14,880 bases of DNA from Candidatus Tremblayella phenacoccinincola (GTDB lineage: Bacteria; Pseudomonadota; Gammaproteobacteria; Burkholderiales; Burkholderiaceae): positions 1 through 14,880 of the forward strand of contig NZ_MKGN01000001.1 of the NCBI RefSeq assembly GCF_002682985.1, in the 5' to 3' direction. The notes beneath the pieces were generated by a model. The model did no database searches and was not told the DNA's origin. It saw only the letters and a program-made list of their open reading frames with translations. The translations under genes and the position numbers were made by a program. Positions 1 to 14,880 of this stretch are shown here, piece by piece; the first letter of the stretch is position 1; every line of letters starts with the position of its first letter.

Positions 1-307
1 ATATGATGTAGAGGAGCTAGCTGTTAGGAGTGTTAGGTGCGTTAGATCCACTATGGGGAGGTGGTTATGGTTGTCTAGTAGAAGCTGTTCCCCTTTATGG
101 ATATCTTATGTCTAACTACTTCTAACTTGGTTCTACTAATGCATTAATATATGTAGCTTAGGTTAGTCATAAGCAGATACCCCAGTCAAGACCAACACAT
201 CATAACACAGAGGCAAAAGAGACTTCAGGATACTTCAGATGTTCTTATTGGTTAGGTTCGGACAACCATCAGGCTCTTTCCCCCCCTCTTTCTGTTAGCA
301 CATATTA

Positions 308-490
308 TTAGGACTTCTTGATATGCTTCCTTGCTGCTGTTACCTTCTTTCTTTTCCGTTCAGAGGTTGGCTTTTCATAATATAACCTAGAACGTACTTC
401 ACTTAGTAAGCCGCTACGCTCAACCATCCTCTTGAACCGACGTATGGCTATTTCAAATGGTTCGACATCCTTTATAATAACAATACTCAT
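308..490 (-). CDS. rpsU: 30S ribosomal protein S21
   Basis: 60-aa ORF that aligns end to end with bacterial S21. Here: EPFEIAIRRFKRMVERSGLLSEVRSRLYYEKPTSERKRKKVTA. E. coli RpsU as I recall it: [43 protein letters not shown]. AGGAG lies 6 nt upstream of the ATG on the minus strand. Confidence 0.9.
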   Translation of the reverse strand: MSIVIIKDVEPFEIAIRRFKRMVERSGLLSEVRSRLYYEKPTSERKRKKVTAARKHIKKS

Positions 491-496
491 ATAGAG

Positions 497-501
497 CTCC
501 T
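497..501 (-). promoter_or_regulatory. Shine-Dalgarno (AGGAG) of rpsU
   Basis: Plus-strand ctcct at 497-501 reads AGGAG on the minus strand, 6 nt from the rpsU ATG (490-488). It is the only clear SD I found upstream of any CDS in the window. Confidence 0.5.
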
Positions 502-724
502 AGTGATATACGGGAAGTCCTCCCACATGTCTCATGTTGATGTCTTTAGTTATAAACAGCTATTGGTTAAGCAGGTATTCTTGGTAAGATGAAGCTGGTG
601 TTCCTTGGAGTATATGATAGAGATATATGAACACTCTATAAAGAACCATTAACAGCTCCCGAACCGACCTAGTCATTAGAACAATAAACATAGCTCCTCC
701 CAAGCATGCCTAACACCAATCTAT

Positions 725-2110
725 ATGTTCTCAACGGCCTTGTACGATAAACTATGGAATGCGCATATCATTAAAACACAGAGTAGTGGCGTATCCTTGT
801 TATATGTAGATCTCCACCTTATTCACGAAGTAACCTCTCCACATGCATTTGAAGCTGTTACACAATATGTGCATAATCCTAAAACCACCCTAGCCATTCC
901 AGACCACAATATCACAACCAACCCAGAGAGAAACAAGTCTACTGCCTTCGGGTCTCAAATAGATCTTTTAAGAACAAACAGCAAGAACCATAGTATATGC
1001 TTTCTAGCAGGACATGATGAAAAGCAAGGAATAGTCCATGTTGCAGGACCAGAGTTAGGTATAACAATTCCAGGTTCAAGCATTGTATGTGGAGATTCTC
1101 ATACTTCAACACATGGCTCCTTTACTACTCTGGCTCAAGGCATAGGTTCTTCTGAAGTTGGAACTACTTTAACGACACAGACGCTTCTACAAAGGAAGAA
1201 CCGAAATATGGAAGTTAGCATAGCAGGTAATCTGCATGATGGATGTGTAGCTAAAGATATAGCATTAGCTATAGTTAATACAATAGGAACAGCTGGTGGA
1301 TCAAGCTACTCTATAGAATTCAAAGGAGGCTCTTCCCAAAGAATGTACGTAAACTTCAGAACAACTCTGTGTAATATGTCTATAGAAGCAGGCGCAAAGA
1401 TTAGCATGCTAGCAGCTGACAACATACTTCTTAACTACCTAGCCAACCGAACGATATACACACATACTTTAAGAGATAACACCTGGAAGAAACTAAAAAC
1501 AACTCTTAGTACATCGTTTAATAAATGCGTCTCAATAAAAGTAAACTCAATAGCACCTCAAGTCACTTGGGGAACATCTCCTGAAATGGTTTCTTCTGTT
1601 GATGATAGAATCCCAGATCCTGCTGTTGAAAACAACCCTGACAAAAGGAAAACTATGGAGTCTGCTCTTAACTACATGCTTTTAGAACCAGGAACTCCTA
1701 TTAACACAATAAGCCTAGACTACGTATTCATTGGGTCCTGTACTAATAGTCGGATAGAAGACTTAAGAAGCGCAGCATACGTTGTTAGAAAGATGAACAA
1801 ACCCGTTGCTAAAGGTGTTAGGAAAGCAATTGTTGTTCCAGGTTCTGGGTCTGTAAAGAAACAAGCAACTTCAGAGGGTCTTGATAAGATATTCAAGAAG
1901 GCTGGGTTCGAATGGCGAGCACCTGGCTGTTCTATGTGTATCGCAATGAACTCTGACAAGCTATATCCAGAAGAGAGATGTGCGTCTACTTCTAACAGAA
2001 ACTTTGAAGGAAGACAGGGGAAGCTTAGCAGAACACACTTAGTAAACCCAATGATGGCAGCTTTGGCGGCTATTAGTGGTAAGTTCCAAGATGTTAGAAG
2101 AGTGCTTTAA
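725..2110 (+). CDS. leuC: 3-isopropylmalate dehydratase large subunit
   Basis: 461 aa, colinear with E. coli LeuC. Motifs: HLIHEVTSP, GIVHVAGPE, IVCGDSHT, FIGSCTNSRIEDL, PGCSMCIAMN, ASTSNRNFEGRQG. The three Fe-S ligand cysteines are retained. Confidence 0.95.
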   Translation: MFSTALYDKLWNAHIIKTQSSGVSLLYVDLHLIHEVTSPHAFEAVTQYVHNPKTTLAIPDHNITTNPERNKSTAFGSQIDLLRTNSKNHSICFLAGHDEKQGIVHVAGPELGITIPGSSIVCGDSHTSTHGSFTTLAQGIGSSEVGTTLTTQTLLQRKNRNMEVSIAGNLHDGCVAKDIALAIVNTIGTAGGSSYSIEFKGGSSQRMYVNFRTTLCNMSIEAGAKISMLAADNILLNYLANRTIYTHTLRDNTWKKLKTTLSTSFNKCVSIKVNSIAPQVTWGTSPEMVSSVDDRIPDPAVENNPDKRKTMESALNYMLLEPGTPINTISLDYVFIGSCTNSRIEDLRSAAYVVRKMNKPVAKGVRKAIVVPGSGSVKKQATSEGLDKIFKKAGFEWRAPGCSMCIAMNSDKLYPEERCASTSNRNFEGRQGKLSRTHLVNPMMAALAAISGKFQDVRRVL

Positions 2111-2697
2111 TGGATAAATCGATACTACACAGAGGAGTTATTATCAATATCGAAAAGGATAACATAAACACTGACGTCATTATTCCAAAGCAGTTCTTAA
2201 AAGAAACATCCAAACGCAGGCTCGGAAGCTACCTATTCAGCGAATGGCGAGAGCCTACATACCAATTCAATAGTGAACCATTCCCATTAGTATTAAGAAC
2301 AAGCAACAAAGTATCTGTCCTGCTAGTTAGGAAGAACTTTGGATGTGGTAGTTCAAGAGAACATGCTCCTTGGTCTATTAAACAATATGGGTTAAACATC
2401 CTCATTGGTCTTAGCTTTGCTGACATATTCTACGTTAATGCTATTAAGAACGGGATATTGCCTTTAACTCTAAAAGAACCCGATGTGACATATATAGCTC
2501 AGCTCTTAGTAAAAGTATCTAGGCTTCAGATTACGGTGAACTTAATGGACAGAAAGGTAGTCTCGAGCACATATAAAGACTGGTCGTTTTGTGTTCCTTC
2601 CTTTTATCGATTAGCATTATTGAGAGGAATGTCAGAAGCTGAGTTAGTTCTTAAACATATCAAGGATATCATAAGTTTTGATAGAAGCAATGAGTGA
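2110..2697 (+). CDS. leuD: 3-isopropylmalate dehydratase small subunit
   Basis: 195 aa. LeuD motifs: DVIIPKQFL, NFGCGSSREHAPW, SFADIFY. The ATG overlaps the leuC stop by 1 nt (TAATG at 2108-2112). Confidence 0.93.
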   Translation: MDKSILHRGVIINIEKDNINTDVIIPKQFLKETSKRRLGSYLFSEWREPTYQFNSEPFPLVLRTSNKVSVLLVRKNFGCGSSREHAPWSIKQYGLNILIGLSFADIFYVNAIKNGILPLTLKEPDVTYIAQLLVKVSRLQITVNLMDRKVVSSTYKDWSFCVPSFYRLALLRGMSEAELVLKHIKDIISFDRSNE

Positions 2698-2769
2698 CCC
2701 GAACATCTTAATTATGGTTTATAATATAGAATATTAACGAAAGCTCTATGCTGGTCAATCCTCATATAT

Positions 2770-3841
2770 ATGAATGTTATAGTATTACCCAGGTGATGGT
2801 ATAGGACCTGAAGTTATTAAGGAATCAGTCAAGGTATTGAACGCACTAACCATACGCCAAATAACCATTAAGGAATCTCTTATTGGTAGAACAGCATTTG
2901 AATCCACTGGAAGCTTTTTGCCTGTCTCAACAGTAAACATGGTTAAGGCAAGTGATGCAGTTTTACTTGGGTCAGTAGGTGCTAACAGGACTACTGACAT
3001 TACATACTACCCTGGTCCTGAAACAGCTCTTTTAAAACTAAGAAAGCTAATGAGTTCTTCCATAAACCTCAGACCAATCAAACACTATGACTCCATTAAC
3101 ACCAGCTTTCCAAATGATAACCTGAAAGGCACTGACATATTGGTTCTGAGGGAGCTAACCAGTGGAATTTACTTTGGTAAGCCAAAGATCGTAAGAAAGA
3201 CATATGCTCAGACCAAAGCAACATCTCTAGAAGGGGTTGATACAATGAAGTACTCTGAGTCAGAAGTTAGAAGTATAGCACACGTTGCTTTTAAATCCGC
3301 TAGGAACCGTAAGAAGAAGATCCTATCAGTGGACAAAGCAAATGTTTTAGAATCATCCAAAGTCTGGAGGAGTATGGTTTTAGAAGTATCCAAAAGCTAT
3401 AATGATGTTAGGTTATGGAACAACTACATTGATAGTGCGGTAATAGAAATACTAGCGAACCCAAGAGAATTCGATGTAGTTCTTTCTGGAAACCTTTTTG
3501 GAGATATCCTTTCTGACCAGCTTTCAATAGTCTCTGGTTCTTTAGGAATGTTGCCTTCTGCGTCCTTGGGTTTTAATGGGAAAGGCCTGTATGAGCCTGT
3601 ACATGGTTCAGCTCCATCTTTAACACACAAGAACTTGGCTAACCCAATAGCTGCTATTCTTTCGTTAGCGATGCTGTTAAGATATTCGTTCCATCTAAAC
3701 AAACAGGCATCTATGATTGACAATGCAGTAGTAAGCGTTCTAAAAAGGAACTATAAAACATCAGATATCTCCAACGGTAAAAGATATGTTAGTACGTCTG
3801 AAATGGGAGACTTGATCGCTTCATTAATTAGAACAATATAA
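2770..3841 (+). CDS. leuB: 3-isopropylmalate dehydrogenase, 5' end interrupted by a +1 frameshift at 2788-2796
   Basis: The body (2792-3841) is colinear with E. coli LeuB: LRPIK, LRELTSGIYFG, SVDKANVL, NLFGDILSD, GMLPSASL, LYEPVHGSAP, ANPIAAILS. The conserved N-terminus is split across two frames. ATG2770 gives MNVIVLP and then hits AGG-TGA. The next frame continues GDGIGPEV. The only uninterrupted ORF starts at TTG2837 and lacks the GDGIGPEV loop. Confidence 0.85.
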
Positions 3842-3850
3842 TACCTAAGA

Positions 3851-4939
3851 ATGTTTGGAAGAGGCTGTATTGGGTTTGTAGGTTGGAGAGGCTTGGTGGG
3901 TTCTGTATTTATCAAACAATCACAGGTTGCTGCTAACATTAACAACGAATCCACTAAATACCTATTTCTTAGCAGCACATACAGAAGGTTGGTTAAGTTC
4001 TTAATAGGTGTCTACAACGTAAAGAAGACTAACGACGTTAAAGCTCTATTAAAATGCAAAGCTATTGTTTCAATGCAAGGTAGTGACTACACTGATATTA
4101 CGCTTTCTAACCTAAGAAACCTGAACTGGACTGGCTATTGGATTGACGCAGCTTCTTCTCTTAGGAGACAGCTTAATGTGTGTGTAGTGTTGGACCCCGT
4201 AAACTCTAGAACCATCAAAAGCTCCATAGAAAGCGGTAAAAAGAGTTTCGTTGGTGGGAACTGTACCGTTAGTTTAATGCTAATGGTGTTACATAGGTTA
4301 ATCAGGAGAAGTAATATGAAATGGATGTTCGTTACAACCTTTCAATCTGTATCAGGAGCTGGTTCCAACTACGTAAAGGGTTTGCTGTTACAGATGGCTT
4401 TCTTGAGTAGAGCTAGGTTTAGGGATGTGCTAAACTCAAGCATTCAGGTTAGGATAGGTGATCCAAGCGTAAGTGAGTCCGTTGTTGGGTCAATTGTGCC
4501 TTGGATAGATGAAGAGACGAATAAGCTAGGAACGTCAAAGGAAGAACAAAAGGGCTTTATTGAAACTAATAGAATATTAGGACTACCAATGATACCGAAC
4601 GTTGGTGGTGTGTGTATAAGGGTTGGGGTGTTAAGATGTCATTCACAAAGCTTTTTAATTAAGGTTGAGAAAAGCATGTGTTTTGGATGTGCTGCTGACA
4701 TAATTCAATCAACCAGCAGATGGGTTAAACTATTACCAAATATAAAAGCATACTCAAGGCAGTTATTAACACCTGAACATATAGCTGGTTCTTTGGTGGT
4801 TGCTATTGGTAGACTAAAGAAGCTACCATTCAATAGTGGACTCCTATCAATGTTTACAGTAGGAGATCAGTTACTATGGGGAGCTGTTGAACCTATAAAG
4901 CGAACACTTAAACTCTTTTGTAATATGGTCTCGAACTAG
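3851..4939 (+). CDS. asd: aspartate-semialdehyde dehydrogenase
   Basis: 362 aa, colinear with E. coli Asd. Motifs: GFVGWRGLVGSV (NADP fold), YWIDAASSLR, GGNCTVSLML (catalytic Cys), LRCHSQ (catalytic His), TVGDQLLWGA. Confidence 0.92.
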   Translation: MFGRGCIGFVGWRGLVGSVFIKQSQVAANINNESTKYLFLSSTYRRLVKFLIGVYNVKKTNDVKALLKCKAIVSMQGSDYTDITLSNLRNLNWTGYWIDAASSLRRQLNVCVVLDPVNSRTIKSSIESGKKSFVGGNCTVSLMLMVLHRLIRRSNMKWMFVTTFQSVSGAGSNYVKGLLLQMAFLSRARFRDVLNSSIQVRIGDPSVSESVVGSIVPWIDEETNKLGTSKEEQKGFIETNRILGLPMIPNVGGVCIRVGVLRCHSQSFLIKVEKSMCFGCAADIIQSTSRWVKLLPNIKAYSRQLLTPEHIAGSLVVAIGRLKKLPFNSGLLSMFTVGDQLLWGAVEPIKRTLKLFCNMVSN

Positions 4940-5073
4940 CTGTTAAAGATCTTTCAATATACAGTCTACAATCATCTCAAAGACAAGGCTTCTAATCAGT
5001 AGCATAGCTCTTTGAATGTGGGTTCCTTATTGGAGGAGCTCCCTTACAATCCCTTAACAAGAACATAGCTACT

Positions 5074-8000
5074 ATGTATAAAAGCACACAAAGGTATGTT
5101 CATTTAAGAATGCACTCAGAGTACTCGGTATTAGATGGTACTATCAGACTAAATGAAGCGTTAGAATGTGCAAAAGCAAACAAACAAGGGGCTTTAGCAT
5201 TAACTGATCTCAATAACCTGTTTGGAGTAGTGAAGTTTTATAAGTTATCAAGAATACAAGGCATTAAACCAATAGTCGGATGTAATATATCAGTTAAACA
5301 TGGTAGCTCTGAAAGCAAGAACAAAAGTAATATCATTTTGCTAGCCACTAACGTACAAGGCTACCGTAACCTATGTAAGATAGTTTCTATGGCTTGGGTG
5401 AACCATAGTATCAACAGCTATTCATTCCTTGATGAACCTAACATAGTTCAAAGAGAGCCCAGTTCAATAGCTATAGAAAGAACCTGTTTGAAAGGAGATC
5501 TAACAAGAGGTCTTATAGCCTTATCAGGAGCTATATATGGAAACATAGGACAGGCCATAATGGACGGAGATAAACACAATGCAAGAACCCTGTTGAATGG
5601 ATGGCTATCTGACTTCTCTGGTAACTTTTATGTTGAGATACAGCGTAGCGGCCAACAAAGCGAGGAACGCTATATAGATGGGGCAGTAGAGTTAGCTTCT
5701 ATATATAGAATTCCAGTAGTAGCAACACATCCAATTCAGTTCCTCAAACCAACAGACTTTCAAATGCATGAAGTCAGGGCTTGTATAGCTGAGAACAAGA
5801 TTCTACTTAATAGACAAAAAGCCAAGAAATATACATATGAACAATACTTCAAATCCAAAAGAGAGATGTGTAGTCTATTTAAAGACATTCCTTCAGCATT
5901 AGAAAACACTGTACATATAGCTAAAAGATGTAACTTAAGCTTGAACCTAGGAGATATTAAACTACCTGTCTTCCCAAAACCTAAGGGCATTCCAATTAAA
6001 AAGCTTTTCGTAGCTTCAGTAGTTATTGGTTTAAAATGCAAGATCCAAAAGAAGCGGATAAGAATTAAAAGCACCTCTTTCGTTCATTATCTTAACAGAA
6101 TAGTGTTTGAGTTCGAAGTAATACTTAGAATGGGGTTCTTAGGATATTTCCTGATAGTATCAGACTTTGTATGTTGGGCTAAGAACAATGGAGTTCCAGT
6201 AGGACCGGGTAGAGGCTCTGGTTCAGGTTCTCTAATAGCATTCATTTTAAGCATTACCGATGTTAACCCAATTCAGTACGGTCTGTTGTTCGAAAGGTTC
6301 TTAAATCCAGAACGTATAGCAATGCCAGATCTCGATATAGACTTCTGTCAAGCTGGTAGGAACAGAGTCATAAGCTATGTAATGGAACTGTATGGAAGTA
6401 GGCTGGTATCTCAAATCACAACGTTCGGAACATTTGCGACAAGAGCCGCAATTCGAGACATAGGAAGAACATTAGGCATACATCATACCATAACAGACAA
6501 CATTGCAAAGCTCATTCCACAACCTACTGAACAACAACAAAAGCTTAACTACAACGTACTAAAGCTTGAAACCATCGTATTGAATCCTGATAGACCCGAA
6601 GAAGCCTCTCGTTCTTTGGTAGGCAGTAGTGTTAGACGCTTGATTAGCTTAGCAGTTAGGATGGATGGATTAGCTAGAAACGTTGCTGTTCATGCCGGGG
6701 GAGTATTAATTGCACCTGTATCTATTTCGATGTTCTGTCCTTTGTATTCACAAGAAGGCGACTGTGCTATGTTGGTAAGTCAGTTTGATAAAGATGACGC
6801 AGAAACAGTAGGTTTAGTAAAGTTCGACTTTCTTGGACTTACAACCTTAACAGCTCTTAATAATACTGCAAAACATATTAAAGCCCTCCATAAGCTGAAA
6901 GCTTGGTCATTGGAGGACATATGTATGGAAGACATTGGTTCATATAAGATCTTGCAAAAAGCAGATACCATAGCCATATTCCAGTTTGAAAGCTCAGGCA
7001 TGAAAAGGATTCTAAGAACAGCTAAACCAGATTGCTTTGAGGATATTATAGCATTAATAGCTTTGTTCAGACCAGGTCCTATGCATTTAATGTTTAGCTA
7101 TTGTAAAAGAAAACATGGCATGGAAAGCTCACATTACTTAAACAGACGTCTGGTACCTATATTAAAAGAAACCTATGGCATAATAATATATCAGGAACAG
7201 GTCATGCAGATCGCTAGGGTTATTGGTAGATACACTCTTGCAAAAGCTGATCTTCTCAGAAGGGCGATAAGTAAAAAGCAACCGCTCGCAATGGAACACC
7301 ACAGACTGAACTTCCAAAAAGGAGCCAGAAGTATTGGGTTAACCAACGCTGAGTCTAAAGTAATATTCGAACTAATGGAGAAGTTTGCTTGCTACGGTTT
7401 TAACAAGTCACACGCAACAGCTTACGCTATATTAGTCATTCAAACAGCCTGGTTAAAAGCTCACTATCCAGCTGAGTTTATAGCTTCAAACTTAAGCTTA
7501 TCAATGCACGAGGTTAACAGGACTATAAAATTGTATAAAGACTCCTCAAATAGAAACATAATGCTCCTAAAACCAGATGTTAACAAGTCTTTTTATCAGT
7601 TTAAACCAATTGAGAATGTTCCCATAAAGGCTTGTCTCAAGATAGATTCTATCCATAAGACTAAACCTAAAGCTATACAGTACGGTCTGGGAGCGATCAA
7701 AGACACCGGAAAGCTCGCTGTTCAAGAACTCATAAAGGCTAGAGAAGCCAAACCCTTTACAAGCCTTCTTGACTTCTGCCTTAGAACTAATCGAAGAACT
7801 CTAAGCAAGAAAACCATTGAGCTTTTAATAAGAGCTGGAGCTTTCGATAGTTCTTGTTGTTCAATAAGGAGATGTGTTCTAATAAGGCTGTTAGTAGCGA
7901 CTATAAGGTATTCAGAAAGAATAAAAGCATCCGTAGACATCAGTGGGTTATATCCAAACAGCGGTTCCTTTGAGATTAGTCTAGACAGAGCAATGAGAAA

Positions 8001-8637
8001 GATAAGACCAATATGGAGTGAAAGAAGGATCTTATTTGAGGAAAAGAAAGCATTAGGTCTTTATCAGACTGGACATCCATTTAAGCTCTTCAAAAGAGAT
8101 ATTAGGAAGCTTGTTCCAAATAGCATAAGTTATTATAGGACTGGTTCTATAGGTAGTCATGTTTTCTTATGTGGCGTAGTTACCAGCTATTTCCATAAGC
8201 TAATTAACAACAAACTCGTAGCTGTTATTCTTTTAGAAGACGACGAAGAACAGTGTAGTGTTTACCTCAACACCTCAATATTACCGAACGATGTTAAACT
8301 AGACAAGCTTATAATAGTAAGAGGTCACTTACTCGTTCCAAAAGACTACGATAGAATAAACATAACAGCTGTCAGAACATATAGTTTAACGTCCGAATGT
8401 CTTAAACAATGTAGGTTTGTGACAACTGTTTGTAACATCGAATCAACCATTGCAAAGGCTTCTAGCTTCTTTATAAAGACCACATACAGTTCAGGCAAGA
8501 GTATATTTATTCAAATAGCCCACAAGCTTAAAACTATTGTAGTCTTAGAACATAGTCTAGGTTTATATTGTGAATCTACATTAAGAGCTCTTAATAAGGT
8601 TCTTAATGGGTGTCTAAAGATCAAATATATATACTAA
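5074..8637 (+). CDS. dnaE: DNA polymerase III alpha subunit
   Basis: 1187 aa. PHP N-terminus HLRMHSEYSVLDG. Motifs: GVPVGPGRGSGSGSL, FERFLNPERIAMPDLDIDF (catalytic Asp pair), FDKDD, LVKFDFLGL, FRPGP, IIYQEQVMQIA, GFNKSHATAYA, AHYPAEF. Confidence 0.95.
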   Translation: MYKSTQRYVHLRMHSEYSVLDGTIRLNEALECAKANKQGALALTDLNNLFGVVKFYKLSRIQGIKPIVGCNISVKHGSSESKNKSNIILLATNVQGYRNLCKIVSMAWVNHSINSYSFLDEPNIVQREPSSIAIERTCLKGDLTRGLIALSGAIYGNIGQAIMDGDKHNARTLLNGWLSDFSGNFYVEIQRSGQQSEERYIDGAVELASIYRIPVVATHPIQFLKPTDFQMHEVRACIAENKILLNRQKAKKYTYEQYFKSKREMCSLFKDIPSALENTVHIAKRCNLSLNLGDIKLPVFPKPKGIPIKKLFVASVVIGLKCKIQKKRIRIKSTSFVHYLNRIVFEFEVILRMGFLGYFLIVSDFVCWAKNNGVPVGPGRGSGSGSLIAFILSITDVNPIQYGLLFERFLNPERIAMPDLDIDFCQAGRNRVISYVMELYGSRLVSQITTFGTFATRAAIRDIGRTLGIHHTITDNIAKLIPQPTEQQQKLNYNVLKLETIVLNPDRPEEASRSLVGSSVRRLISLAVRMDGLARNVAVHAGGVLIAPVSISMFCPLYSQEGDCAMLVSQFDKDDAETVGLVKFDFLGLTTLTALNNTAKHIKALHKLKAWSLEDICMEDIGSYKILQKADTIAIFQFESSGMKRILRTAKPDCFEDIIALIALFRPGPMHLMFSYCKRKHGMESSHYLNRRLVPILKETYGIIIYQEQVMQIARVIGRYTLAKADLLRRAISKKQPLAMEHHRLNFQKGARSIGLTNAESKVIFELMEKFACYGFNKSHATAYAILVIQTAWLKAHYPAEFIASNLSLSMHEVNRTIKLYKDSSNRNIMLLKPDVNKSFYQFKPIENVPIKACLKIDSIHKTKPKAIQYGLGAIKDTGKLAVQELIKAREAKPFTSLLDFCLRTNRRTLSKKTIELLIRAGAFDSSCCSIRRCVLIRLLVATIRYSERIKASVDISGLYPNSGSFEISLDRAMRKIRPIWSERRILFEEKKALGLYQTGHPFKLFKRDIRKLVPNSISYYRTGSIGSHVFLCGVVTSYFHKLINNKLVAVILLEDDEEQCSVYLNTSILPNDVKLDKLIIVRGHLLVPKDYDRINITAVRTYSLTSECLKQCRFVTTVCNIESTIAKASSFFIKTTYSSGKSIFIQIAHKLKTIVVLEHSLGLYCESTLRALNKVLNGCLKIKYIY

Positions 8638-8971
8638 AAGCCTGTTGTTTTAAACACAGCTCGTTGTTGAATAAAGAGCCCAAAGTATAAAAACACCTTA
8701 CATCAGCTTTCATAATATGTACTAATATAGAACTACAACATACTACGTGCCACTGACTACTGCTTTGTGTTACGAATGTTGAAGAGCCATACAGATCTTT
8801 GAATAGTCCATGTAGTTCCTTAGCAATTCCTCTAATGTGAACACTAGAAACGCCTTCAGTCACTATTGTATACGTATGGCTCACTTTAAAGTCCGTGTAT
8901 ATCTTGGTGTTTACAGCTTTTAGTTTGTATGCTGTGTATACGGCTTTTAATATAAGACCTACATCACACAT
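8621..8971 (-). CDS. rsfS: ribosomal silencing factor RsfS (YbeB/iojap family), with a C-terminal extension
   Basis: 116 aa. Aligns with E. coli RsfS as I recall it. TEGVSSVHIRGIAKEL matches CTGTSSRHVMSIADHV. QWHVVCCSSILVHIMKADVRCFYTLGSLF matches [29 protein letters not shown]. About 13 extra residues follow the family's usual end. GC content is like the left-hand block. Confidence 0.65.
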   Translation of the reverse strand: MCDVGLILKAVYTAYKLKAVNTKIYTDFKVSHTYTIVTEGVSSVHIRGIAKELHGLFKDLYGSSTFVTQSSSQWHVVCCSSILVHIMKADVRCFYTLGSLFNNELCLKQQAFSIYI

Positions 8972-9133
8972 GCCTCACCTCAGATTCTAACCTAGAGACC
9001 CATATACAGACAGTCTACATCGCTTTTTGTTTATTGGATTGTCTTAGATTAACACAGATATAGAACTCCAAAACCATCTGTTTAACTTATGTTCTATTGT
9101 ATGTATATGCTATGATGTTATGAGTTATGATAT

Positions 9134-10555
9134 ATGATATGCCTATATAACACATTAACTAAAACTAAAGAACTTATCAACCCTATTAAACCTAACTTAG
9201 TAACTATATATATTTGTGGTGTAACAACATATGATCTGTGCCATTTAGGACACGGACGCACGTTTGTAGCTTTTGATATTATTATTAGGCATATACGTCA
9301 TTGTGGTTATAAAGTTAGATATATTCGAAATATCACTGATATTGATGATAAAGTTATATATAAAGCAGTTAAGGTTGGTGTTCAATGTAAGTTCTTAAGT
9401 AAAAGCTTTATAGTTGAAATGCATAAGGACTTTAAGTTAGTTAATGTAGCGCAGCCTAACCATGAGCCTTGTACTACTAAAACCATAAGACATATTATTG
9501 ACTATGTTTATATGTTAATTAAAAAGAGATATGCTTATCTAAATACAAATGGGGAAGTAATATATTCAATTAAAACCACTAATAGTTACGGTCTATTATC
9601 TCGACAGGCAGCTATATATCTTAATGTAAACAAGCTTAAGAACTTTAATAATAAACGAACCTCTAATGACTTTGTATTATGGAAAAGACCTAAACCTGGA
9701 GAACCAAGTTGGGATTCACCTTGGGGCATTGGACGTCCTGGTTGGCATATAGAATGTTCAGCTATTAACCATAAATACTTAGCCTCTCACTTTGATATCC
9801 ATGGTGGAGGGTTAGACTTAATATTTCCACACCATGAAAATGAACTAACTCAGACTACCAGTTGCTTTGATGGTTCTTGTGTTAGGATATGGATGCATAC
9901 TGGCATATTAATATTAAATAAAGAAAAGATGTCGAAGTCTTTAGAGAACTCTATTAAGCTACGGGATGTTTTTAGTTCTTATGATGCAGAAACTATAAGA
10001 GCCTTATACATAACTAGCCATTATAGAAGTCCTTTATCTTTTAGTCTTAAAAAGGTAAAAGAAGCAGTTACTTCTCTAAAGCGTTTATATACTTCTCTTA
10101 GAACTACTAGGTTTAGGTTAAACGTAGCTCTTAAAGAAACTAAAGGAATTAAAGAAGAGATGGTCGAGAGATTTATTAATGCTATGAATGACGACTTTAA
10201 TACTCCAAAGGCTTTTTCAATACTATTTTATATGTCTAAAAGGATAAACTATCTTAAACATAGGAACTTAATATTAGCATCTAACCTAGCTTCTAATCTA
10301 CGTAGTTTAGGTTCTAGACTAGGACTATTAAGCTACGGTTCTATTGATCTTATGTATATACAAGAAACTATATTAACTAAAGCAAAGATTAGGATAGATG
10401 ATATAGAAAAGCTAATTAAGAAACGTAACCTAGCTAGAAGTAATAAACAATGGCATTTGTCGGATAATATAAGAGCTAAGCTTATTGATAAAAGCATAGT
10501 ACTTGAAGATGTTAAAGATAATACAATATGGAATGCTAGCTTAAACCTCCAATAA
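9134..10555 (+). CDS. cysS: cysteine--tRNA ligase
   Basis: 473 aa, colinear with E. coli CysRS. Motifs: YICGVTTYDLCHLGHGRTFVAFD (HIGH), YIRNITDIDDK, GRPGWHIECSA, FPHHENE, KMSKS, DDFNTP. Strong I/K/N/Y enrichment. Confidence 0.95.
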   Translation: MICLYNTLTKTKELINPIKPNLVTIYICGVTTYDLCHLGHGRTFVAFDIIIRHIRHCGYKVRYIRNITDIDDKVIYKAVKVGVQCKFLSKSFIVEMHKDFKLVNVAQPNHEPCTTKTIRHIIDYVYMLIKKRYAYLNTNGEVIYSIKTTNSYGLLSRQAAIYLNVNKLKNFNNKRTSNDFVLWKRPKPGEPSWDSPWGIGRPGWHIECSAINHKYLASHFDIHGGGLDLIFPHHENELTQTTSCFDGSCVRIWMHTGILILNKEKMSKSLENSIKLRDVFSSYDAETIRALYITSHYRSPLSFSLKKVKEAVTSLKRLYTSLRTTRFRLNVALKETKGIKEEMVERFINAMNDDFNTPKAFSILFYMSKRINYLKHRNLILASNLASNLRSLGSRLGLLSYGSIDLMYIQETILTKAKIRIDDIEKLIKKRNLARSNKQWHLSDNIRAKLIDKSIVLEDVKDNTIWNASLNLQ

Positions 10556-10557
10556 GT

Positions 10558-10631
10558 GCGCCCTTAGTTCAGTTGGATAGAGCAACGGCCTTCTAAGCCG
10601 TAGATCACAGGTTCGAACCCTGTAGGGCGTG
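10558..10631 (+). tRNA. tRNA-Arg (anticodon UCU)
   Basis: Hand-folded cloverleaf. Acceptor GCGCCCT/AGGGCGT (G1.U72). D stem GTTC/GAGC. Anticodon stem ACGGC/GCCGT with loop CTTCTAA (TCT at 10592-10594). T arm ACAGG-TTCGAAC-CCTGT. Discriminator G. No encoded CCA. Starts 2 nt after the cysS stop. Confidence 0.9.
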
Positions 10632-10659
10632 CTTTCTATATATTAGTTTATTATAGACT

Positions 10660-11130
10660 ATGGACGTATTAAAAAGCCTTATGTATATAAACCTTATAAT
10701 AAAGAATAATAAGATACCTTTTCAATACTATGTTGAAAAAAGGTTTGAAGCAGGCATATCATTACAAGGGTGGGAAGTTAAGGCTCTTAGGTTTAAAAAG
10801 GCTAATATTAACAATAGCTATGTATATATCAAGGAATGTGAAGCATACATAGTTGGTTCTAGCTTTCAGTCTTTATATTATATATCCTGTTCAGACATAA
10901 CCTATGAACCATTAAGAACCCGTAAGCTACTATTAACTAAAAAAGAACTAACTCTTTTATATGGGTCAGTATATAAACATAAGGGCTACTCTATAGTAGT
11001 TGAGTCTTTATATTGGAAAGGCTCTTGGTGTAAAGCTAGTATAGTTTTAGTTAAAGGCAAAAAGGACTACGATAAAAGAAGTGACCTAAAAAAGGATATG
11101 CAGGTTAGCTGTTTGTCTGATACATATTAA
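10660..11130 (+). CDS. smpB: SsrA-binding protein SmpB
   Basis: 156 aa, colinear with E. coli SmpB. Motifs: FEAGISLQGWEVKALR, RTRKLLLTKKEL, LYWKGSWCKASIVLVKGKKDYDKRSD. Confidence 0.9.
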   Translation: MDVLKSLMYINLIIKNNKIPFQYYVEKRFEAGISLQGWEVKALRFKKANINNSYVYIKECEAYIVGSSFQSLYYISCSDITYEPLRTRKLLLTKKELTLLYGSVYKHKGYSIVVESLYWKGSWCKASIVLVKGKKDYDKRSDLKKDMQVSCLSDTY

Positions 11131-11152
11131 TCTGCTGTCCTAACCCTATTAG

Positions 11153-11701
11153 TTAAAAGAAGTTCTCCCATATAGCTATAACACATCCTATGACTTGTTT
11201 ACCTGGGAATGTTCCCCAAAAGCGGCTATCATAGCTTTTAACTATATAGTCACCTATTACAAAATATCTAAACCTTGGTAAACACCAACAACATATATTG
11301 CTTTTGGGTTTATTAATAAGGATGCCTTTTCTACTATGTATGTTTAAGCTACTATATAATATGTTCTTCTTTTGGTCTTTAAGCTTTTGTATATAGTTTA
11401 TTATTCCTATATAGTTTATGGATATCTTTTTAATATGCTTATTATATGTTACTATATCACCAGGTAAACCTAATAGTCTTTTGATATAATTAGAAGCTTT
11501 AAAAGGATATCTTACTACTATTATAGAACCTCGTTTATTAATAAACCCATAAGAAACCTTTTTAACTATGGCTAGGTCTCCAGAGAATAACGTTGGAACC
11601 ATTGACATTGCCTTAATACAATATAGACCAACTATAAAAGCATCTACTGAATATAATAGCATAATAACTATAATAGGTTTTATTATGTTAAGCTTATCCA
11701 T
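11153..11701 (-). CDS. lepB: signal peptidase I (short form)
   Basis: 182 aa. One N-terminal hydrophobic segment. Catalytic Ser box SMVPTL. Lys box YIKRLLGLPGD. Box E GDYIVKSYDSRFWG. Confidence 0.85.
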   Translation of the reverse strand: MDKLNIIKPIIVIMLLYSVDAFIVGLYCIKAMSMVPTLFSGDLAIVKKVSYGFINKRGSIIVVRYPFKASNYIKRLLGLPGDIVTYNKHIKKISINYIGIINYIQKLKDQKKNILYSSLNIHSRKGILINKPKSNICCWCLPRFRYFVIGDYIVKSYDSRFWGTFPGKQVIGCVIAIWENFF

Positions 11702-11748
11702 ATATTGTCTCTTTAGAAGTAGATATGTGGTTAACTACTAGTCTTAGT

Positions 11749-14211
11749 CTAGGTTAAAGTTAATATGTTTATTGCTTTATTAGGTATGTATAGCACCTTA
11801 TAAGCATTATTAGGTTTAATATATCTTAAAGGCTTTTCATAGCTATATAGCTTTTCTATCAATAGAGACTCTCTTATACATACAGACGTCTCAATAGAAC
11901 CTCTTACTTTATTATTAATATGTACTATTATTGATATATATATAGAACCTATGTATGAGCTGTTTAAGTTAACCCAATATAGATCTTCTATAGCTTTTAT
12001 GTTGGTTAGTTCCTTCCATAATATGGAACAAAGATGAGGAACAAAAGGACTAACTATTTTAATAACTAGCTTTAACATCTCTTTAGATAAAGAGTAGTCC
12101 AACTCTTTTAGCTTAGGTAGTTTAATTAGGTTACTAACTATCTTCATAATAGTGGCTATAGTAGTGTTAAATGAAAGACGTTCTTCTATAGTATTAGCTA
12201 GCTTAATAATAGCCTTATTAACATCCATATATAATAACAGCTGTCCTTTGCTTAGGGAATTAATATCAAAAGGTAATACATATATTAGGTCTACATGCTC
12301 ATATACAATGCTCCATACTTTAATTATAAACCGATAGGTACCTTCTATTCCTGATTGGTTCCATATAAAATCTATGTTAGCAGGAGCAGCAAACATAATA
12401 AATAGTCGTAATGCATCAGCGCCATATAGTTCTAATATCTTTCCTGGACTAATACCATTATTTTTAGACTTTGACATCTTATGTATACCTGCGTGTTTAA
12501 CTTCATTACCATCTAAATCAAATAGGTTATATAGGTTGGTTTTGCTATTATATTTAGCAACTACATATAGCGGAGAAGCCCAACTAATATTATTATCTAC
12601 ATAGTAATAAGCATCCGCTAAAACCATCCCTTGACAAAAGAGTTTCCTTACTGGTTCTTTATATTTAAACCCAACTAGACCAGCATCTCTTAATAGCTTA
12701 TGGTAAAATCTAATGTATAATAAGTGCATAACGGCATGTTCTATTCCACCTATATATTGATCAACAGGTAACCAATAGTTTGATGCTTTTATATCTATCA
12801 TGTCTTTTATATAGGCTGGACAACCATAACGAACGTAATACCATGAAGACTCTATAAAGGTATCAAAAGTATCAGACTCACGATATGCCTCTTTCCCTAA
12901 ATATATAGACTTATGCCATTTTACATTCCTTTTCCTAGCTACTAACAGATATCTATTTACTAATAGGCTTTCATCCAATATAGCTGGTAGTTCTTTAGTT
13001 GATACAGCTATCGCTTTCTTACTATGTGTATATATTGGTATAGGGGTTCCCCAACTACGTTGTCTAGAAATACACCAGTCTTTTAAACAATAGGTTATCT
13101 TTTGAATACAGCTATTAGATTTAATTAACATATTCACTATAGAACCAATTCTTTGAGGTATTCCATATGGTACTTTGTTTGATATATATATAGCAGTTGG
13201 TAGTTTATGGTATATAGCAAAGCTAATATCTTCTATATATTTAGAAGGAATACCTATAGTGATGTCTGTTCTATATTCTTTTATTATATGGTTAACTACC
13301 CAAACTGATAGCATTATATTTGTTAATGGACTTATAGCGGATAACTCTGTAATATCTTTTAGACTGTCTGTATTAACTTCTTTTACGGTCTTTTTTATAT
13401 TTAAAAGCGATAAGTAATGATAAACAGATATCTTTATATAGGAAGTCTTTATCAAACACTCTGGGTCTATAGAATATATACAGATGCTAGAACCTAGTCC
13501 TAATATGCTAACTGTTAGTATTATGCTTTTAGCTTTACCTATCCAGTTTCTTTGCATATCTTTTATATGTGTTGGCCAATAGGTTAAATAGGTTAGGCCT
13601 TTTAGAAGAGCATCAGCATATGAAGATATCTTAATAAACCATTGTGAAAGCTTTTTAAAAGATATATGCTTATTACATCTCCAACAGATCCCATTAACAG
13701 CCTGTTCATTTGCTAATACTGTTTTATCTGTAGGACACCAGTTAACAACAGTTTTGGTTTTATAGGCTAACTCCTTACTATATACGTATATATATATCCA
13801 TTGTTCCCATTTATAATATTCTGGTTTACATGTGATAACTTCGCGAGACCAGTCAATACTATAGCCCATAGTCTTTAGTTGAGCTCTCATATGGATTATA
13901 TTATTATATGTCCATTCAGAAGGGATGCTTTTATTAGTAGCTGCTGCGCATTCCGCAGGTAGACCAAATGAGTCCCACCCAAACGGATTCAATACATAGC
14001 TTCCCTTCATTCGTTGGTATCTAGCTATAACGTCCCCTATTGTATAGTTTCGGATATGACCCATATGAAGTCTTCCAGAGGGGTAGGGCAACATAGATAA
14101 GCAATAGTACTTTCCTTTAGATATAGACTCAGTAGCTTTGTATAGTTGGTCTTTCTCCCAATAGGATTGTATATTAGCTTCTATCTCTTTATGGTAATAT
14201 AGTTCTTCCAT
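11749..14211 (-). CDS. leuS: leucine--tRNA ligase
   Basis: 820 aa, colinear with E. coli LeuRS. KYYCLSMLPYPSGRLHMGHIRNYTIGDVIARYQRM is nearly identical to the E. coli segment. Other motifs: VLANEQ, CWRC, QWFIKI, MQRNWIG, LKDWCISRQRSWG, YIGGIEHAVMHLLY, KMSKSKNNG. Confidence 0.95.
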   Translation of the reverse strand: MEELYYHKEIEANIQSYWEKDQLYKATESISKGKYYCLSMLPYPSGRLHMGHIRNYTIGDVIARYQRMKGSYVLNPFGWDSFGLPAECAAATNKSIPSEWTYNNIIHMRAQLKTMGYSIDWSREVITCKPEYYKWEQWIYIYVYSKELAYKTKTVVNWCPTDKTVLANEQAVNGICWRCNKHISFKKLSQWFIKISSYADALLKGLTYLTYWPTHIKDMQRNWIGKAKSIILTVSILGLGSSICIYSIDPECLIKTSYIKISVYHYLSLLNIKKTVKEVNTDSLKDITELSAISPLTNIMLSVWVVNHIIKEYRTDITIGIPSKYIEDISFAIYHKLPTAIYISNKVPYGIPQRIGSIVNMLIKSNSCIQKITYCLKDWCISRQRSWGTPIPIYTHSKKAIAVSTKELPAILDESLLVNRYLLVARKRNVKWHKSIYLGKEAYRESDTFDTFIESSWYYVRYGCPAYIKDMIDIKASNYWLPVDQYIGGIEHAVMHLLYIRFYHKLLRDAGLVGFKYKEPVRKLFCQGMVLADAYYYVDNNISWASPLYVVAKYNSKTNLYNLFDLDGNEVKHAGIHKMSKSKNNGISPGKILELYGADALRLFIMFAAPANIDFIWNQSGIEGTYRFIIKVWSIVYEHVDLIYVLPFDINSLSKGQLLLYMDVNKAIIKLANTIEERLSFNTTIATIMKIVSNLIKLPKLKELDYSLSKEMLKLVIKIVSPFVPHLCSILWKELTNIKAIEDLYWVNLNSSYIGSIYISIIVHINNKVRGSIETSVCIRESLLIEKLYSYEKPLRYIKPNNAYKVLYIPNKAINILTLT

Positions 14212-14302
14212 AGTTTATAAGAAGGATTAGGGGGTTAAGTAGTTACTGGATGAGACCAATATGTTATTAGCTATAAGAGAGGAATTAACATAGTCTATAT
14301 AG

Positions 14303-14340
14303 TTGGGGTTTATCGTTATCTCCTGCCATACGAACCCCAA
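14303..14340. repeat. inverted repeat (8-bp stem TTGGGGTT/AACCCCAA, 22-nt loop) in the leuS / tRNA-Leu divergent spacer
   Basis: TTGGGGTT at 14303-14310 is the perfect reverse complement of AACCCCAA at 14333-14340. A second, weaker one (AGGCCTAT 14365-14372 / ATAGGCTT 14388-14395) follows. Confidence 0.35.
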
Positions 14341-14463
14341 AAGCTTCTCATATATTTTCTAGAGAGGCCTATATTGTAGCTAAAGAGATAGGCTTATAGT
14401 TAGCATTTATAGGGATACTTTTGTTGATAGCTCTTCAAAGGAAGGAGGGAGAAAGTGTTTAAT

Positions 14464-14547
14464 ACCGAGGTGGCGAAATAGGTAGTCGCGTTACTTTGAG
14501 GTGGTAATGCTTTTATAAGTATACGGGTTCAAGTCCCGTCCTCGGTA
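14464..14547 (+). tRNA. tRNA-Leu (anticodon GAG), class II with long variable arm
   Basis: Acceptor ACCGAGG/CCTCGGT. Anticodon stem TTACT/GGTAA with loop TTGAGGT (GAG at 14498-14500). Long variable arm. T arm ACGGG-TTCAAGT-CCCGT. Discriminator A. Very close to E. coli tRNA-Leu(GAG) as I recall it. No encoded CCA. Confidence 0.9.
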
Positions 14548-14575
14548 TTATATAATAAACATAATACGCATCTAA

Positions 14576-14650
14576 AGCGGAGTGGAGCAGGCTTGGCAGC
14601 TCATCGGGCTCATAACCCGAAGGACGTTGGTTCAATTCCAACCTCCGCAT
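14576..14650 (+). tRNA. initiator tRNA-fMet (anticodon CAU)
   Basis: Colinear with E. coli tRNA-fMet. Three consecutive G:C pairs close the anticodon loop (TCGGG-CTCATAA-CCCGA, CAT at 14611-14613). A11:U24 is present. Positions 1:72 are unpaired (A x A). T arm GTTGG-TTCAATT-CCAAC. No encoded CCA. Confidence 0.85.
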
Positions 14651-14880
14651 CTGAGATCTTGGTGTTCTTGTGTTGTTAGTTAACCTTTGTATATTAGTAT
14701 GTAGATTAGTATGTATGATGTTCATTGTAGCTTGAAAAGGCAGTCTATATTGGTATGTATCTATAGGCTATTAGATGAACCAGGCTCTAGGACAGATATA
14801 CGTTGGTTCTTAACAGCTACAGAGCACATACATAGCTGATGAACCATTCCTTTCTCGAGTAGAGGCTACCCATATGCTTA

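Follow-up and report, generated by a model that had tools for sequence, protein, structure and literature searches.

A gammaproteobacterial gene block amid betaproteobacterial segments on a contig of the chimeric 'Candidatus Tremblaya phenacola' PPER genome

Among the few documented mergers of two bacterial classes into a single chromosome is that of 'Candidatus (Ca.) Tremblaya phenacola' PPER, the only symbiont in the bacteriome of the mealybug Phenacoccus peruvianus, whose genome combines betaproteobacterial (beta) and gammaproteobacterial (gamma) genes (Gil et al. 2018, ISME J 12:124, as cited in PMC5664097 and PMC11014885). The bacteriome is reported to hold a single bacterial cell type (PMC4144094, PMC5664097). 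The same chimeric architecture has been reported for PSOL, whose host is Phenacoccus solenopsis (PMC11014885). Such a fusion genome shows a way for a degenerate symbiont to regain translation functions. Here we analyse a stretch of 14,880 nucleotides (nt) from contig NZ_MKGN01000001.1, hereafter the window, in which a block of low GC content carrying cysS, a tRNA-Arg gene, smpB, lepB and leuS (positions 9134-14211, hereafter the island) is flanked by sequence of higher GC content. An earlier note on this DNA, made from the letters alone, had proposed two ancestries on one molecule and had pointed to PPER.

The window is the first contig of that published genome. NCBI proteins named 'Candidatus Tremblaya phenacola' match its DnaE, LeuS and LepB at 100% identity, and its gene order is that of TPPER_00001-00012 in the supplement of PMC11014885, which bears out the pointer to PPER. 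Look-ups of the exact CysS and DnaE sequences returned no record. The phenomenon is already known from publications on this organism (2018) and on its sister (2024); the published per-gene labels fit the earlier note, and the result is a correct rediscovery that brings no new biology. Its value is one of validation, the chimeric genome and the organism having been inferred tool-free from composition and gene content.

Composition and ancestry of the island and its flanks

The GC content is 38.3% at positions 1-9133, 31.5% at 9134-14211 and 39.3% at 14212-14880. An unconstrained two-breakpoint likelihood fit placed the island at 9031-13830, with 30.8% versus 38.5% GC and a log-likelihood ratio of 41.8; in 200 shuffles of 60-nt blocks, this ratio averaged 5.3 and peaked at 11.9. 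Genes on the left have 35.0-40.3% GC and protein genes of the island 28.6-31.7%, lepB being the lowest in the window. Gene-wide GC at third codon positions (GC3) is 0.30-0.37 on the left versus 0.22-0.29 in the island, and the F+Y+M+I+N+K fraction of the proteins is 0.28-0.33 versus 0.37-0.48. Pooled coding sequences of gamma and beta genes differ in GC (31.2% versus 38.2%), in GC3 (0.242 versus 0.339) and in GC at 4-fold sites (GC4; 0.13 versus 0.22). This distinct GC and codon-usage signature of the gamma genes is present in the PPER window and likewise in PSOL.

The sliding-window profile and the per-gene counts thus agree with the sharp step at two gene boundaries described in the earlier note, which had the existence and the boundaries of the step right and overstated its size. 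The 20-27% GC given there for cysS, lepB and leuS is true of only 20-44% of their 60-nt lines, whose means are 28.5-31.7%. The GC3 estimates over about 90 codons (about 39% in leuC, about 19% in cysS) are close to the values of 0.400 and 0.178 counted over the first 90 codons, and the claimed enrichment of I, K, N, Y and F in island proteins is reflected in the fractions given above. The spacer lengths were also read correctly: spacers measure 2, 27, 22 and 47 nt inside the island, and 234, 72 or 139, 9, 134, 162 and 251 nt outside. Tight packing as a conserved trait does not hold, since the island spacers of the sister genome PSOL are longer (25, 36, 67 and 78 nt). Compact spacers were therefore rejected as an island signature.

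The genes to the left of the island form a beta backbone. Among the best 120 matches of DnaE, Tremblaya phenacola proteins (100%, 82% and 43% identity) are followed by Burkholderiaceae (about 46%), and leuC, leuD, leuB, dnaE and rpsU are labelled beta in the supplement of PMC11014885. The gene adjoining the left junction, rsfS, has no published ancestry label. In the purely beta T. phenacola PAVE, dnaE and rsfS also converge and overlap, by 12 nt (PAVE locus 13463-13474) versus 17 nt in the window (8621-8637); this convergent arrangement is older than the fusion. After rsfS, PAVE carries ilvB-ilvC-leuA, and PPER and PSOL carry the gamma block. When 1.8 billion representatives were scanned exhaustively with HMMER, the best RsfS match outside PSOL was a protein sharing 85% identity with PAVE RsfS. 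Since its arrangement is that of PAVE and its closest relative is of PAVE type, rsfS belongs to the backbone, and the left junction is the spacer that separates it from cysS (8972-9133). On the other side of the island, the tRNA-Leu/tRNA-Met pair is 94% identical to that of PSOL, where rlmE and carB follow; carB is labelled beta (PMC11014885).

The gamma class of the island is firmly established. The best genome matches of CysS in a GTDB scan are Enterovibrio, Sodalis, Winslowiella and Vibrio, at 46-48% identity. In a neighbour-joining tree of 37 sequences, including seven beta ones, the CysS pair of PPER and PSOL joins a clade of Enterobacterales, Vibrionales and Aeromonadales in 189 of 200 bootstraps, and the beta sequences in none (0/200). 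For LeuS, all named non-Tremblaya matches among the best 120 come from Enterobacterales or Orbales (41-45% identity); they include Sodalis, Pantoea, Gilliamella and Dickeya as well as the mealybug symbionts Mikella, Doolittlea and Gullanella. The two enzymes had been called almost identical to those of E. coli over long stretches, which is overstated: identity to E. coli K-12 is 43.9% for LeuS and 47.6% for CysS, the longest uninterrupted matches spanning 19 and 11 residues. The published labels are gamma for cysS, smpB and leuS, smpB (TPPER_00010) having been used in the published gamma tree; the label of lepB is 'unknown' in PPER and 'gamma' in PSOL (PMC11014885). Ten aminoacyl-tRNA synthetase (aaRS) assignments taken from the PMC11014885 supplement are gamma, except for one 'unknown' (PSOL proS).

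In addition, gene order provides a marker that is independent of composition. A same-strand tRNA-Arg(UCU) gene follows cysS at a distance of 1.4-4.2 kb in Sodalis sp. RH21, Winslowiella, Pantoea and Ca. Pantoea carbekii, that is, in 4 of the 5 Enterobacterales loci scanned; this synteny is absent from Enterobacter, from Enterovibrio and from the three beta loci scanned. In the island, the spacer between cysS and tRNA-Arg(UCU) is reduced to 2 nt, and the open reading frames (ORFs) that intervene in Sodalis are gone. Aligned with four Enterobacterales tRNA-Arg(UCU) genes, the tRNA shows a mean column identity of 94%. This argues that the cysS-tRNA-Arg segment is an enterobacterial relic left after loss of the intervening genes.

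Physical linkage and competing explanations

Three assemblies were compared: PPER, PSOL (GCA_009805595.3, an 87.9-kb contig from another host species) and the Logan assembly of SRR13503347. The order in PSOL is leuC-leuD-leuB-asd-dnaE-rsfS, cysS-tRNA-Arg-smpB-lepB-leuS, tRNA-Leu-tRNA-Met, then rlmE-carB. Hence both junctions recur with the same gene order and orientation; over the beta block the nucleotide identity of PPER and PSOL is 85.4%, over the island 80.3%. The left junction is also found in the Logan assembly, 98.1% identical to PSOL. Within the left spacer, which measures 302 nt in PSOL, the alignment of PPER with PSOL breaks, and the left likelihood breakpoint (about 9031) falls in the same spacer. 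The right spacer (14212-14462) is unalignable with PSOL; leuS and the tRNAs that flank it align. Together with the comparisons of DnaE, RsfS, CysS and LeuS, this linkage bears out two ancestries on one molecule.

We conclude that the contig is very probably chimeric, with a 5.1-kb gamma block from a Sodalis-allied co-symbiont lying amid vertically inherited beta segments. These would comprise rpsU-leuCDB-asd-dnaE-rsfS on the left and tRNA-Leu/tRNA-fMet on the right, with rlmE-carB next in PSOL. A Sodalis-allied co-symbiont that was already AT-rich would have fused its genome with that of Tremblaya; recombination after the fusion would then have interleaved fragments, and redundancy would have been lost. 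The GC step could be a historical signature of this event, the donor genome and its proteins presumably having been more AT-shifted than Tremblaya at the merger. The gamma genes supply translation functions (aaRS, SmpB), for which PPER and PSOL appear to have only gamma copies.

Several points weigh against this interpretation. The CysS tree is a neighbour-joining tree on long AT-biased branches, in which the PPER/PSOL pair stands beside the AT-rich Ca. Pantoea carbekii; support for Enterobacterales only is just 8/200, and the finer placement is unreliable owing to long-branch attraction to Ca. Pantoea carbekii. As the tree is weak at the level of orders, the 'Sodalis-allied' placement rests on the literature and the synteny relic. 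LepB is too diverged for its ancestry to be resolved by sequence: a homologue search returned four matches, none of them taxonomically informative. Asd scores alike against gamma and beta enzymes of the PDB (1nwc 282.5, 3uw3 276.9, 1brm 263.6) and so fails to discriminate between the two classes, which explains why the published asd labels conflict (beta in PPER, gamma in PSOL; PMC11014885). The right-hand tRNA-Leu/tRNA-Met pair is assigned to neither beta nor gamma. Finally, the window alone cannot separate fusion of whole genomes from serial transfer of fragments.

The latter, piecemeal horizontal transfer, would make the island a single small fragment, or a few of them, received from a gamma co-symbiont, which we consider improbable. 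The island itself is a composite of at least three gamma loci, as such transfer would predict, cysS/argU and leuS lying in separate E. coli regions. In E. coli, smpB and lepB map to yet other regions. Enterobacterial synteny is moreover kept by cysS-tRNA-Arg alone. On the other hand, gamma genes are reported to account for about 46% of the gene set in PPER and 45% in PSOL, redundancy being low and whole machineries having one origin (PMC5664097, PMC11014885). Gamma and beta blocks alternate every few kb in PSOL, which fits fusion followed by shuffling and loss. The borders also lack the traces of insertion: no integrase or mobility genes were detected among the window ORFs, no mobile-element remnants at the island borders and no direct or inverted repeats flanking 9134-14211, the 18-33-nt matches at the island borders and contig ends being at chance level. 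Following the literature, we infer whole-genome fusion rather than piecemeal transfer.

An assembly chimera, in which reads of Tremblaya and of a co-resident gamma symbiont were wrongly joined, had been named in the earlier note as an alternative. The contig is short with uncharacterised ends, and conservation across the locus is lowest in the junction spacers, as such an error would have it. However, the same joins come from independent datasets, which excludes the artefact for all practical purposes, and the authors of PSOL argue from the same synteny against misassembly (PMC11014885).

In PSOL, moreover, GC follows the published ancestry through four alternating blocks (PMC11014885), and is therefore not scattered without relation to gene ancestry. 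The block aceF-lpd-infA-trxB-aroQ has 28-32% GC (aceF, lpd, trxB and aroQ carry gamma labels; infA did not turn up in the PMC11014885 table), leuC to rsfS 33-40% (beta), cysS to leuS 26-30% (gamma) and rlmE-carB 38-39% (carB beta). A single ancestry with local heterogeneity due, for example, to expression level or gene function, for which one could invoke that all protein genes of the island act in translation or secretion, has a probability close to nil given the affinities of CysS, LeuS and DnaE, the enterobacterial cysS-argU synteny and the equally low GC of the gamma-labelled metabolic genes aceF, lpd, trxB and aroQ of PSOL.

Age of the union and persistence of the step

Because both junctions are present in PPER and PSOL, the union predates the split of these two lineages, which differ by a synonymous divergence (dS) of 0.31-0.40 and by 0.20-0.24 at 4-fold sites. 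It came after the PAVE lineage had branched off, since PAVE lacks the gamma block after rsfS. The earlier note had deduced a fairly recent union from the premise that the two compositions should converge under one replication and repair regime. Recency is not demonstrable, and the premise is unsupported: of the 7-point step in coding sequences (38.2% versus 31.2%), codon positions 1 and 2 account for 54% and position 3 for 46%. A union older than the PPER/PSOL split, together with a step more than half of which is at the amino-acid level, corrects the inference of recency. Protein constraint and few substitutions suffice to keep the step, and slow amelioration may be the reason why it persists.

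The contrast between beta and gamma blocks at 4-fold sites is of similar size in both genomes (0.22 versus 0.13 in PPER, 0.23 versus 0.12 in PSOL). Substitutions between two PSOL-type genomes were polarised with PPER by parsimony, a procedure that is biased at such divergence; the resulting AT>GC : GC>AT counts are balanced in the beta (29:26) and gamma (19:18) blocks, and no convergence between blocks was detectable in these recent substitutions. The implied third-position equilibria are 0.33 (beta) and 0.20 (gamma), for present GC3 values of 0.34 and 0.22. Per GC site, GC>AT changes occur in the gamma block at about double the rate of the beta block, a difference that is not significant (Fisher p = 0.09). 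It is conceivable, though we judge it unlikely, that the step reflects block-specific stationarity within one small replicon and not a slowly decaying relic. Two mutation or selection regimes would then coexist under one replication and repair machinery; candidate causes include codon-tRNA co-adaptation per ancestry and context-dependent mutation.

Between PPER and PSOL, the ratio of nonsynonymous to synonymous divergence (dN/dS) is 0.37-0.41 in cysS, lepB and leuS versus 0.25-0.29 in beta genes. This contrast, with gamma above beta, is opposite to the genome-wide trend given in PMC11014885.

Other features of the window and relation to known systems

The features of the window are listed in Table 1.

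Table 1. Gene map of the window, from NCBIfam, ARAGORN and Rfam; locus tags are taken from the supplement of PMC11014885 (aa, amino acids)
Feature	Position	Strand	Locus tag	GC (%)	Profile or caller	Remarks
rpsU (ribosomal protein S21)	308-490	-	TPPER_00001			60-aa ORF; beta backbone; 'beta' in PMC11014885
leuC	725-2110	+	TPPER_00002	40.3	NF004016, 607.6 bits	beta backbone
leuD	2110-2697	+	TPPER_00003	37.1	NF002458, 189 bits	1-nt overlap with leuC; beta backbone
leuB	2770/2837-3841	+	TPPER_00004	38.9	TIGR00169	beta backbone; N-terminus from ATG 2770 out of frame with remainder
asd	3851-4939	+	TPPER_00005	39.3	NF005144, 349.5 bits	backbone-like GC; 9 nt after leuB
dnaE	5074-8637	+	TPPER_00006	37.4		Tremblaya/Burkholderiaceae matches; beta backbone
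rsfS	8621-8971	-		35.0		convergent with dnaE, 17-nt overlap; last backbone gene before left junction
left beta/gamma junction spacer	8972-9133	.		33.3		162 nt
cysS	9134-10555	+	TPPER_00008	31.2	TIGR00435, 498.7 bits	gamma
tRNA-Arg(UCU)	10558-10632	+				2 nt after cysS; gamma
smpB	10660-11130	+	TPPER_00010	31.0	NF003843, 141.4 bits	island gene, gamma as published
lepB	11153-11701	-	TPPER_00011	28.6	TIGR02227, 87.6 bits	island gene; short, 182 aa
leuS	11749-14211	-	TPPER_00012	31.7	TIGR00396, 771 bits	gamma (Enterobacterales; Sodalis-allied according to the literature)
right junction spacer	14212-14462	.		35.5		251 nt
tRNA-Leu(GAG)	14463-14548	+			ARAGORN, Rfam	
tRNA-Met(CAU), initiator type	14576-14651	+			ARAGORN, Rfam	27 nt after tRNA-Leu(GAG)

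The initiator type of tRNA-Met(CAU) was read from its A1:A72 mismatch and the GGG/CCC anticodon stem. The corresponding tRNA genes of E. coli, leuU and metY, share a chromosomal region, with about 3.8 kb between them.

The region to the left of leuC is rearranged between the two genomes, with the beta gene rpsU in PPER (1-724) versus a gamma block in PSOL (1-5641) that carries aceE/aceF/lpd, infA, trxB, tRNA-Thr and aroQ. The supplementary table of PMC11014885 lists no PPER counterpart for aceE, aceF or lpd. A 92-nt intergenic segment (126-217 in the window, 5287-5376 in the PSOL locus) is 83% conserved between PPER and PSOL; its neighbours differ (rpsU in PPER, aroQ in PSOL), and it has no Rfam match, an Rfam search of positions 1-724 having returned nothing at E <= 1.

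An incidental feature of leuB may merit a follow-up of its own. Read from ATG 2770, the canonical N-terminus MNVIVLP leads into CCC AGG TGA (2788-2796), and the remaining LeuB, from GDGIGPEV onward, lies in the +1 frame, owing to a 1-nt insertion at CCC-A (2788-2791). In PPER, the main leuB frame has a TAG (2780-2782) just upstream, so that 15 conserved codons, GDGIGPEVIKESVKV, are unreachable from a canonical in-frame start; PSOL leuB has an alternative in-frame TTG start. The motif CCC-A-GGT-GAT-GG is common to PPER, PSOL (locus 7681-7710) and the Logan assembly (about 10545-10575, minus strand). When A2791 is skipped, the product scores 374 bits against TIGR00169 (profile 1-348); the ORF from TTG 2837 scores 341.7 bits (profile 32-348), under the cut-off of 353.2. 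In 14 environmental LeuB homologues with translated N-termini, xxIxxLPGDGIGPEV is encoded in a single frame, and a metagenome scan for PAVE-type leuB returned no Tremblaya. Where PPER and PSOL diverge within the seven upstream codons, the changes are synonymous or conservative when read in the ATG frame. AGG is not rare in the window (12.6 per 1000 codons). The most economical reading of these sequences is a candidate +1 recoding, in which peptidyl-tRNA-Pro would slip from CCC to CCA and the LeuB N-terminal peptide would be MNVIVLPGDGIGPEVIK. As background, losing trmD and efp favours +1 slippage at CCC-N. No report of a leuB frameshift in Tremblaya was found in the searchable literature.

Beyond the published description, our analysis pins the left junction to the rsfS/cysS spacer through PAVE synteny and adds the cysS-tRNA-Arg (argU) relic, the age of the union relative to the PPER/PSOL split, the codon-position split of the step, the polarised substitution counts and the leuB frameshift. 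That the window belongs to the published PPER genome is shown by identical proteins, locus-tag order, beta/gamma labels and the GC and codon-usage signature. PSOL resembles the window in the order from leuC to leuS, in the two junctions and in the GC step; it differs in carrying aroQ, trxB and pyruvate dehydrogenase (pdh) genes, published as gamma, upstream of leuC instead of rpsU, in its longer island spacers and in its nucleotide identity of 80-85%. The nested consortia of Tremblaya princeps with gamma endosymbionts (Moranella, Mikella, Doolittlea, Gullanella) involve the same two partner lineages, and Sodalis-allied gammaproteobacteria supply translation functions there as well. However, their two genomes reside in separate cells, one within the other, whereas the window is one DNA molecule.

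Like a classical genomic island, the block at 9134-14211 combines a sharp change in composition with a foreign phylogenetic signal and a tRNA gene within or next to it. A mobile integrative island was rejected: all window ORFs of at least 80 aa that are not nested in the span of another gene are housekeeping genes, and 9134-14211 is free of direct or inverted repeats at its borders. Hence, unlike a classical island, the block lacks an integrase, flanking direct repeats and mobility genes. Its cargo consists instead of core translation genes that replace lost native ones, and blocks of this kind account for close to half of the genome (PMC5664097, PMC11014885).

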